Assembly (NCBI RefSeq): GCF_002854065.1
Contig: NZ_CP024147.1
Reading direction: 5' to 3' (one strand)
Source: Escherichia coli
GTDB lineage: Bacteria > Pseudomonadota > Gammaproteobacteria > Enterobacterales > Enterobacteriaceae
Length of the DNA stretch: 64,000 nucleotides
Position 1 is the first letter of the stretch; each line of letters begins with the position of its first letter. The position numbers and the translations under genes were made by a program. Below the pieces are notes generated by a model. That model was not told the origin of the DNA. It was given only the letters and a program-made list of their open reading frames with translations, and did not search any database. This document shows positions 23,334 through 27,305 of the stretch, piece after piece.

Positions 23334-23512
23334 GTAGTACGTGTGCCTCAAAATTAATGGCGGCCAGTCTACATAACTCATCATGAAATTGATCAGCAAT
23401 TTTCATTGAAAAGTGTGAACCGGCTCAAAGTAGGTGTATTAACGAACAACAACGCCCTCACCCGTTAAGGTGATGGCAATCAAAAAAGATTACGGGCTGA
23501 TGTGTACGTCAG

Positions 23513-24397: not shown

Positions 24398-24505
24398 TTC
24401 CCACTCCCGAAGACCACGGTTGAATGAACGTCCTGTTCCCGGTTGCTAACAAGGCGTCCTGCCCGGTTAAAAGCCCCCCGCCGCAGCGGAGGGCAAATGG
24501 CAACC

Positions 24506-26641
24506 TTACTCGCCCTGTTCAGCAGCCGGAGCTTCCGGTGCTGCAGCAGGTTGAGACTGCTCAGTCGCTTCTTTAATGCTCAGACGGATACGGCCCTGGC
24601 GATCAACTTCCAGAACTTTCACCGGTACTTCCTGACCCATCTGCAGGTAATCGGTCACTTTCTCAACGCGTTTGTCAGCGATTTGAGAGATGTGTACCAA
24701 ACCTTCTTTACCGCCGCCGATGGCAACAAATGCGCCAAAGTCAACGATACGGGTCACTTTACCATTGTAGACGCGGCCCACTTCGATTTCTGCAGTGATC
24801 TCTTCGATACGACGAATAGCGTGTTTCGCTTTCTCGCCGTCGGTCGCTGCGATCTTCACAGTACCGTCATCTTCGATTTCGATGGTGGTGCCGGTTTCTT
24901 CGGTCAGGGCACGGATAACAGAGCCGCCTTTACCGATAACATCTTTGATCTTGTCCGGGTTGATCTTGATGGTATGGATACGCGGTGCGAACTCAGAGAT
25001 ATCGCCACGCGGCGCGTTGATCGCCTGTTCCATTACACCCAGGATGTGCAGACGCGCACCTTTAGCCTGGTTCAGTGCAACCTGCATGATCTCTTTGGTG
25101 ATACCTTCAATTTTGATATCCATCTGCAATGCAGAGATACCGTCGCGGGAACCCGCAACTTTGAAGTCCATATCGCCCAGGTGATCTTCGTCGCCCAAAA
25201 TGTCAGACAGTACAACGTAGTTGTCGCCTTCTTTCACCAGACCCATTGCGATACCCGCAACGGCAGCTTTGATCGGCACACCTGCGTCCATCAGCGCCAG
25301 AGACGCGCCGCACACGGAAGCCATAGAAGAGGAACCGTTGGATTCAGTGATTTCAGACACAACACGTACGGTGTACGGGAATTTGTCCATATCTGGCATG
25401 ACTGCCAGCACACCGCGCTTCGCCAGACGACCGTGACCAATTTCACGACGCTTCGGAGAACCGACCATGCCGGTTTCGCCTACGGAGTACGGAGGGAAGT
25501 TGTAGTGGAACAGGAAGGTGTCGGTACGTTCGCCCATCAGTTCATCAAGAACCTGTGCGTCACGAGCGGTACCCAGCGTTGCAGTAACCAGTGCCTGCGT
25601 TTCACCACGGGTGAACAGCGCAGAACCGTGAGTACGCGGCAGCACGCCAGTACGCACATCCAGACCACGGATCATATCTTTTTCACGACCGTCGATACGC
25701 GGTTCGCCTGCCAGTACGCGGCTACGAACAACGTTTTTCTCGATCGCGTGCAGAATCTCACCCAGTTCGTTTTCGTCCAGGGTTTCGTCTTCAGCAAGCA
25801 GCGTTGCGATGGTTTCAGATTTGATGACATCAACCTGCGCATAACGCTCTTGTTTGTCGGTGATGCGATAAGCATCGCTCAGACGAGCTTCAGCCAGTGC
25901 AGCAACGCGCGCGTTCAGCGCTTCGTTTACCGGCTCCGGCTGCCAGTCCCAACGCGGTTTACCGGCTTCTTTCACCAGTTCATTGATGTTCTGAATAACA
26001 ACCTGCTGTTGTTCATGACCGAACACTACTGCGCCCAGCATCTGGTCTTCGCTCAGCAGTTCAGCTTCAGATTCAACCATCAGTACAGCGGCTTCAGTAC
26101 CCGCAACAACCAGATCCAGTTTGCTCTCTTTCAGCTCGTCCTGAGTCGGGTTCAGTACGTACTGGTCATTGATGTAACCTACGCGGGCAGCACCAATCGG
26201 ACCATTGAACGGAATACCAGACAGAGACAGTGCTGCGGAAGCACCAATCATCGCGACGATATCCGGGTTAACTTGCGGGTTAACAGAAACCACGGTGGCG
26301 ATAACCTGAACTTCGTTGACGAAGCCTTCCGGGAACAGCGGGCGAATCGGGCGGTCAATCAGACGCGCGATCAGGGTTTCGCCTTCGCTTGGGCGGCCTT
26401 CACGACGGAAGAAGCTACCCGGGATACGACCAGCAGCGTAGGTACGCTCCTGATAGTTAACGGTCAGTGGGAAGAAATCCTGACCTGGTTTGGCTTTTTT
26501 CTGGCCAACAACGGTAACAAATACCGCGGTGTCATCCATGCTAACCATAACAGCGGCAGTAGCCTGACGAGCCATCATGCCGGTTTCCAGAGTCACGGTG
26601 TGTTGGCCGTACTGGAATTTACGAACGATCGGATTAAGCAA
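24506..26641 (-). CDS. pnp: polynucleotide phosphorylase (PNPase)
   Basis: ORF-track 740 aa trimmed to the TTG start at 26641 ([21 protein letters not shown]...) giving 711 aa; C-terminal KH/S1 domains. Confidence 0.93.
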
Positions 26642-26843
26642 TGTAATATCCTTTCTCTTTCTTAGACAGTACCTTACGGCACTGGTGTTAATACCCGATC
26701 TTCTGCGCATCCTCGCGACTAATGACAACCCTAACCCAGCCCAATGTGGGTAAAGCCTCTCATTAGCCGCGCGAACCTCTGCAACGGAAGATCATTCATA
26801 GCAACAATACATTAGTTTCCAGTGAATTGCTGCCGTCAGCTTG
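26642..26843 (-). promoter_or_regulatory. pnp 5' leader (autoregulatory, RNase III-processed region in E. coli)
   Basis: ~200-nt untranslated leader between the rpsO terminator and the pnp start; role assigned from established knowledge of the rpsO-pnp operon, not from a structure calculation. Confidence 0.5.
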
Positions 26844-26872
26844 AAAAAAGGGGCCACTCAGGCCCCCTTTTC
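26844..26872 (-). terminator. rpsO intrinsic terminator
   Basis: aaaaaaggggccactcaggcccccttttc: GC-rich hairpin flanked by A/T runs directly after the rpsO stop. Confidence 0.75.
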
Positions 26873-26887
26873 TGAAACTCGCAAGAA

Positions 26888-27253
<366 letters not shown>

Positions 27254-27305
27254 TTAAGCGGCAGTATTCTACTCGTAGCGACCTGTTATCGCAAGACGGT
27301 TAACA

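Follow-up and report, generated by a model that had tools for sequence, protein, structure and literature searches.

The sequence analysed is a stretch of 64,000 nucleotides of Escherichia coli (RefSeq assembly GCF_002854065.1, contig NZ_CP024147.1), here called the window. Between positions 23500 and 28700 its ORF list places truB, rpsO, pnp and a downstream reading frame of 294 aa, all on the minus strand. The rpsO-pnp intergenic spacer (26887-26642, 246 nt) carries a terminator, a long stem-loop and a ribosome-binding site on the pnp strand and a small RNA gene on the other (Table 1). The position of pnp directly 3' of rpsO on the same strand with a Rho-independent terminator between them is that of an E. 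coli-type leader, as are the conserved long stem-loop between terminator and ribosome-binding site and a UUG start codon yielding a 711-aa protein.

A 901-nt query across the locus matches 5,425 of 5,426 complete E. coli genomes, with at least 99% identity in 5,411 of them, and two records are identical to it. In a 100%-identical RefSeq record rpsO is followed by a pnp CDS that begins at the base equivalent to window position 26641, and the CDS of K-12 MG1655 is equally long (2,136 nt, RefSeq). Over a 301-nt region reaching from the last rpsO codons to pnp codon 14, the window and K-12 differ at two bases (26741 and 26743, minus strand), both of which are located in the apical loop of the leader hairpin (AUUGGG here, AUAGAG in K-12). 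This loop belongs to the segment removed by RNase III, which is freely variable among relatives.

Further upstream, an S15 leader (Rfam RF00114, 118 bits; 27101-27215, minus strand) precedes rpsO and represents the known S15 autoregulatory element; the promoter-like sequence TTGCGA-17-TAGAAT just upstream of it (27266-27294, minus strand) is probably rpsO P1. On the plus strand, a 740-aa reading frame (24443-26665) mirrors pnp nearly end to end; it looks like the shadow ORF of a long, biased CDS and bears no sign of a gene.

Table 1. Features of the rpsO-pnp region; positions are those of the window
Feature	Position	Strand	Basis and remarks
rpsO (ribosomal protein S15), 89 aa	26888-27157	-	ORF list and RefSeq; stop codon TAA 26890-26888
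T1, Rho-independent rpsO terminator	26844-26872	-	Fold and sequence; G+C stem 26866-26861/26855-26850, loop 26860-26856
Internal pnp promoter P2, approximate region	26799-26839	-	Literature, stem geometry, block conservation
Stem-loop R, long pnp leader hairpin, RNase III substrate	26697-26793	-	Folds, consensus fold, pair counts
Predicted RNase III cuts	26722-26761	-	Stem geometry; RIII1 26761/26760, RIII2 26723/26722
Start-like in-frame codons, unused	TTG 26728-26726 (+29 aa); ATG 26710-26708 (+23 aa)	-	Codon walk
Upstream GGA in conserved GAGGAUG, 3' arm; candidate CsrA site 1	26710-26712	-	Motif scan
Second small hairpin, CAGUGCC-GUAA-GGUACUG	26667-26684	-	Fold; between stem-loop R and ribosome-binding site
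Shine-Dalgarno sequence AAGGA, 7 nt before start	26649-26653	-	Its GGA is candidate CsrA site 2
pnp start codon TTG	26639-26641	-	Sequence, RefSeq CDS start, published toeprint and mutant, conservation
pnp CDS, 711 aa plus stop	24506-26641	-	ORF list, RefSeq, PDB chain match
SraG sRNA, 216 nt, antisense to pnp leader	26656-26871	+	Rfam, mapped K-12 annotation, literature

Related loci

Comparative data were obtained with two pattern scans on conserved peptides inside the CDS, which are hence blind to the leader and the start codon and together yielded 240 pnp loci. The peptide of the first scan is conserved across Proteobacteria and beyond; it returned one enteric locus only (Providencia) and served for a broad survey of start codons. 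The second scan, with the peptide FQYGQHTVT against metagenomes, was the source of enteric spacers. The spacer alignment consists of the window and 22 distinct enteric-like spacers (23 in total), three others being excluded owing to a frameshift at the start (L207) or truncation by a contig end (L203 and L237). The frameshift in metagenome contig L207 (about 7920-7935) comes from TTTGCT in place of TTGCT at the pnp start, a displacement by one base, and is probably an assembly error.

The rpsO terminator and promoter P2

The T1 sequence reads AAAAGGGGGCC-TGAGT-GGCCCCTTTTTT (AAAAGGGGGCC-UGAGU-GGCCCCUUUUUU in its RNA form) at about 26872-26844. The original prediction of an rpsO terminator hairpin at this position, followed by a leader of about 200 nt, holds on both counts, the hairpin being confirmed by fold and sequence. 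Its stem is flanked by an A-tract and a U-tract, and the terminator is bidirectional, also ending the antisense RNA SraG on the plus strand, in agreement with the description of T1 and the SraG terminator as one bidirectional element (Fontaine et al. 2016, PMC5029454). T1 is kept in the 23 spacers with variable loops. A consensus scan lists T1 on the plus strand only (26850-26866); the minus-strand copy was probably missed because its stem extends into the A/U tracts and consumes the T run, which is a limit of the scan. Two kinds of insertion occur around the terminator in relatives. Extra inverted-repeat inserts of 50-75 nt separate the rpsO stop codon from the terminator in L230, L136, L168, L208, L146, L231 and L144 (columns 2-76 of alignment A2), and Providencia (L068) has a 58-nt AT-rich insert right after the terminator (columns 123-180).

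The internal promoter P2 is situated downstream of T1, between T1 and the stem, according to the K-12 study (Fontaine et al. 2016, PMC5029454). The conserved TGTATTGTTG block at 26811-26802, with the candidate -10 sequence TATTGT at 26809-26804, is likely the -10 region of P2. Stem geometry would put the transcription start at about 26799 (+/-3 nt), which is at an awkward distance from this best -10 candidate, and a consensus promoter scan of the window did not detect P2.

Stem-loop R and its processing by RNase III

The 271-nt leader folds with -100.9 kcal/mol compared to a shuffle mean of -75.9 (z = -5.5), and none of 200 shuffles folds as well. The folding check that had been proposed for the leader thus recovers a long duplex, stem-loop R, in which an upper helix (26776-26747 with 26738-26709) closes a loop of 8 nt (26746-26739) and a basal helix pairs 26793-26781 with 26708-26697. 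The proposed alignment to the K-12 leader was likewise carried out, with the two loop bases as the sole differences. The RNAalifold consensus of the 23 spacers retains 28 pairs. Across these spacers 97.2% of cells are paired, compared to 37-50% when the partners are slid by 1-3 columns; seven stem pairs have changes on both sides, and no shuffle out of 500 reaches any of the five measures.

The stem arms UUCGCGCGGCUAAUGAGAG and UUGUCAUUAGUCGCGAGGAUG are nearly invariant in the 23 spacers while apex and base vary, and 14 of the 23 pairs of the main helix never vary. This degree of invariance exceeds the needs of pairing and probably results from overlapping constraints imposed by RNase III, the duplex acted on by PNPase, a CsrA site and SraG. 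The 14 pairs are unchanged on both arms with Providencia included (26709-26776, alignment A3), and the flanking leader is saturated with change.

[quoted passage not shown] A single pair of the stem fits cuts that are 38 nt apart and leave a 2-nt 3' overhang, and this spacing and overhang therefore point to the RIII1 and RIII2 positions listed in Table 1 and to a P2 start near 26799. Cleavage at the predicted positions would free 38 nt of the apex and shorten the leader to 81 nt. In separately published RNA-seq of wild type and rnc mutant, the pnp peak at K-12 position 3311286 maps to window position 26759, inside the hairpin. The duplex that remains after the predicted cuts coincides with the invariant portion of the stem. 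This is in line with the published model, as summarised in PMC5029454, by which PNPase destabilises its own message only on taking away the small strand of this duplex. The RNase III-dependent autoregulation of pnp invoked in the original prediction agrees with the literature (PMC5029454) and is in keeping with the near-identity of the leader to that of K-12 and with the comparative data.

The antisense RNA SraG

The strand opposite to the leader encodes SraG. The Rfam model RF00082 matches the window over its full length (1-177) at 26700-26871 on the plus strand, scoring 162.2 bits against a gathering score of 50, and the match lies between pnp and rpsO on the opposite strand, as befits a member of this family. 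The K-12 annotation has the ncRNA sraG in the same intergenic position and orientation (3311183-3311398), and its coordinates map to window positions 26656-26871. Compared with the SraG/PsrO family (RF00082), the model match is full-length, the position is that of K-12 sraG and no difference was detected; what is modelled in Rfam is only the shorter form that was annotated first. The 216-nt primary transcript determined by cRT-PCR starts 42 nt upstream of that shorter form (PMC5029454). Its start corresponds to window position 26656 and is preceded, 7 nt upstream, by a TAATAT box. This -10 box (26644-26649, plus strand) is situated between the Shine-Dalgarno sequence and the TTG of pnp on the other strand, and the pnp start region is therefore constrained on both strands. 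SraG modestly lowers pnp expression, and its removal changes PNPase about 1.3-fold (PMC5029454).

It could be argued that the spacer is strongly conserved on account of the SraG gene and not of a cis-acting pnp leader. The Rfam match of 162 bits here, together with scores of 59-162 bits antisense to the leader in all ten relatives tested, speaks for this explanation, as do the invariance of 14 stem pairs beyond what pairing needs and the location of the SraG -10 box between the pnp Shine-Dalgarno sequence and start codon. However, the invariant G-U pairs of the stem are C-A mismatches on the SraG strand, and the stem folds with -46.1 kcal/mol on the pnp strand versus -33.4 on the SraG strand; together, the invariant G-U pairs and the stronger fold imply that selection acts at least on the mRNA-sense structure. 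Moreover, the effect of rnc on pnp mRNA is large and documented, whereas removal of SraG alters PNPase by the small factor given above. An explanation by SraG in place of a cis-acting leader is thus improbable, and the two roles are not exclusive. The spacer is best read as a cis-acting pnp leader that also encodes SraG on its other strand.

The pnp start codon

The reading frame that begins with TTG 26641 encodes a protein of 711 aa (MLNPIVRKF...) and ends at 24506. In K-12, TTG is named as the pnp start codon; a toeprint dependent on 30S subunits and tRNA-fMet is found 15 nt from the UUG, and pnp is no longer translated when the TTG is mutated to TGA (Fontaine et al. 2016, PMC5029454). Full-length PDB chains of E. 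coli PNPase have 711 aa and the N-terminus MLNPIV (e.g. 7ogk_A), and residues 1-213 of the query align to residues 1-213 of 3gcm_A and 7ogk_A (711 aa) with an E value of about 1e-138. The assignment of the pnp start to TTG 26641 is therefore borne out by the codon itself, the RefSeq start, the published toeprint and mutant, and the conservation of the homologous codon.

This conservation was assessed in tiers of identity to E. coli PNPase over the first 213 aa after removal of duplicates. At 88% identity or more, 23 of 24 distinct enteric-like loci use TTG and one (Providencia) uses GTG, with ATG absent from the tier. Between 75 and 88% there are 22 GTG and five ATG starts, and between 65 and 75% ATG (57) is accompanied by 35 GTG, six TTG and two ambiguous starts. 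Below 65%, mostly Alphaproteobacteria, 66 loci have ATG, one has GTG and five are ambiguous or have none. The start codon follows phylogeny (loci L004-L242). Enteric-like loci have TTG; the 75-88% tier (Photobacterium, Alishewanella, Arsukibacterium, Thalassotalea and the like) mostly has GTG, which is located one codon further in; Alphaproteobacteria, Moraxellaceae and Bacilli have ATG. Among the enteric-like loci the second codon varies synonymously (CTT, CTG, CTA, TTA) and the leader sequence near the start codon is saturated with change.

Walking upstream from TTG 26641 in frame leads to ATG 26710, then to TTG 26728 and finally to a TGA stop at 26794; both start-like codons lie within the 3' arm of stem-loop R. 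The original prediction that the nearest in-frame ATG would add 29 residues needs to be corrected, as the nearest ATG is 26710, which adds 23 residues (MRRRSG..., 734 aa). The extension of 29 residues (MSLVAR..., 740 aa) begins with TTG 26728, printed as M in the ORF translation, and a 740-aa form initiated at ATG, against which the prediction was to be judged, does not exist.

Initiation at ATG 26710, giving a 734-aa PNPase with a 23-residue extension, has in its favour that the frame is open to TTG 26641 in this window and that ATG is the stronger codon. Against it, the ATG is base-paired as part of the invariant GAGGAUG in the 3' arm of the hairpin, and the GAGG abuts it without a spacer and thus provides no usable Shine-Dalgarno sequence. 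Of 25 relatives, 21 have the homologous codon (GTG or CTG in three of the 25) outside the pnp frame and four have it closed off by a stop codon, so that it is in frame and open in E. coli only. The stretch between ATG and TTG cannot be aligned, and its length differs among relatives by numbers that are not multiples of three. As RefSeq, the toeprint and the TTG-to-TGA mutant all indicate 26641 as well, the ATG start is highly improbable and effectively refuted. A start at TTG 26728, the first start-type codon past the in-frame stop, would produce the 740-aa form and is the least credible of all and effectively refuted: this codon is not an ATG, has no Shine-Dalgarno sequence and, being placed in the 3' arm on the upstream side of the predicted RIII2 cut, would be lost from the processed mRNA. 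In addition, 20 of the 24 enteric-like loci lack any in-frame start upstream of the homologous TTG.

The upstream codons being out of frame, blocked or absent in relatives, the longer reading frames, which were sometimes used in older annotations, are accidents of the E. coli sequence. The downstream candidates GTG 26596, ATG 26578 and ATG 26575 were rejected as starts, residues 2-12 being conserved at the protein level in all enteric-like loci. TTG 26641 is hence retained as the start codon of pnp.

The ribosome-binding site and candidate CsrA sites

The AAGG of the Shine-Dalgarno sequence is invariant in the 23 spacers and its distance to the start codon is 7 nt in 21 of 24. In 22 of 24 spacers a motif scan located a second GGA at a distance of 66-81 nt upstream of the start codon, and both GGA motifs (26712 and 26651) are conserved in 22 of 24. 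Candidate CsrA site 1 is exposed only after processing. CsrA is described as binding two sites after processing, one of them over the Shine-Dalgarno sequence (Park 2015, as summarised in PMC5029454). The two conserved GGA motifs, as candidate sites recognised by motif, match this published two-site statement. One paper reports that the PNPase level is unchanged in csrA mutants under its conditions, and the in vivo weight of the CsrA step is uncertain for this reason.

A second small hairpin lies between stem-loop R and the ribosome-binding site. All 24 related spacers form a hairpin of their own at this position from unrelated sequence (mean z -2.0; below -1.5 in 16 of 24), which means that structure is kept and sequence is not. 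The second hairpin may determine how far apart the two GGA motifs lie. A description of it (26667-26684) was not found in the pnp leader literature searched.

Proposed mode of regulation

Cleavage, the role of PNPase, CsrA binding and the toeprint are taken from literature on a near-identical sequence; the identity of the locus, the start codon and its conservation, the terminator, the hairpin and its covariation, the motifs and the SraG match come from the present analysis. Based on this literature, largely as summarised by Fontaine et al. (2016), transcripts would reach pnp either by read-through of T1 or from P2 just downstream of it. The long leader stem-loop would then be cut on both arms by RNase III, leaving a short duplex at the new 5' end whose small upper strand is reported to be removed by PNPase. 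Following removal of this strand, the message would become unstable through attack by RNase E, and CsrA could bind at the two GGA sites, the ribosome-binding site being covered by one of them. PNPase-dependent decay of pnp is itself reported in the K-12 study (Fontaine et al. 2016, PMC5029454). With PNPase-dependent destabilisation and CsrA binding combined, more PNPase would mean less pnp mRNA and less translation. Translation proceeds from TTG 26641, 7 nt past the AAGGA, to give the 711-aa enzyme, and SraG, from the other strand of the same spacer, adds a further negative input. Nothing in the data contradicts a K-12-type explanation.

That the start is so strictly kept as a non-ATG codon (TTG in enterics, GTG in neighbouring groups) suggests selection of the weak codon, with the sampled lineages not being independent. 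It is tentatively proposed from this sequence pattern that PNPase homeostasis may include the non-ATG codon as a selected element. Initiation at UUG, or at GUG in gammaproteobacteria next to the enterics, would be slow and so hold ribosome loading at a rate-limiting level, which in turn would allow CsrA, competition between PNPase and S1, SraG and RNase E to compete effectively at the ribosome-binding site. A literature search found no study testing whether the weak start codon contributes to regulation. The earlier suggestion that autoregulation and the weak codon are connected is a plausible hypothesis.

Taken together, the original interpretation of a TTG start, a leader after T1, an RNase III duplex and autoregulation is supported and was already known; it is incomplete in that P2, SraG and the CsrA sites are missing from it. 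It illustrates that a real non-ATG start and a regulatory leader are recognisable from sequence alone. The value added here is small and comparative in nature, namely that the non-ATG start, the two stem arms and AAGGA, as well as the two GGA motifs and a second hairpin maintained in structure only, are conserved across enteric bacteria. The sole point that goes slightly beyond the literature found is the strict conservation of the non-ATG start.

Comparison with known systems

The RNase III- and PNPase-dependent autoregulation of pnp in K-12 was reportedly worked out by Portier, Regnier and co-workers, with later contributions said to be those of Jarrige in 2001, Carzaniga in 2009 and 2015 and Park in 2015. 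The region is a classic case of post-transcriptional autoregulation in E. coli whose biology is already known; being among the best-known regulatory regions of this organism, it does not constitute a novel finding. The locus in the window is almost certainly the E. coli rpsO-pnp intergenic control region, acting as already described in K-12. Gene order (truB-rpsO-pnp), terminator, hairpin arms, Shine-Dalgarno sequence and TTG are identical to those of the K-12 rpsO-pnp leader, which differs from the window only by the two apical-loop substitutions. The leaders of rnc and metY-nusA-infB in E. coli likewise contain a hairpin in the 5' leader that is cut by RNase III, whereupon the downstream message is destabilised. 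Unlike in these two cases, in pnp the product of the gene itself, PNPase, must also act on the cut duplex, and further inputs come from an antisense sRNA and CsrA.
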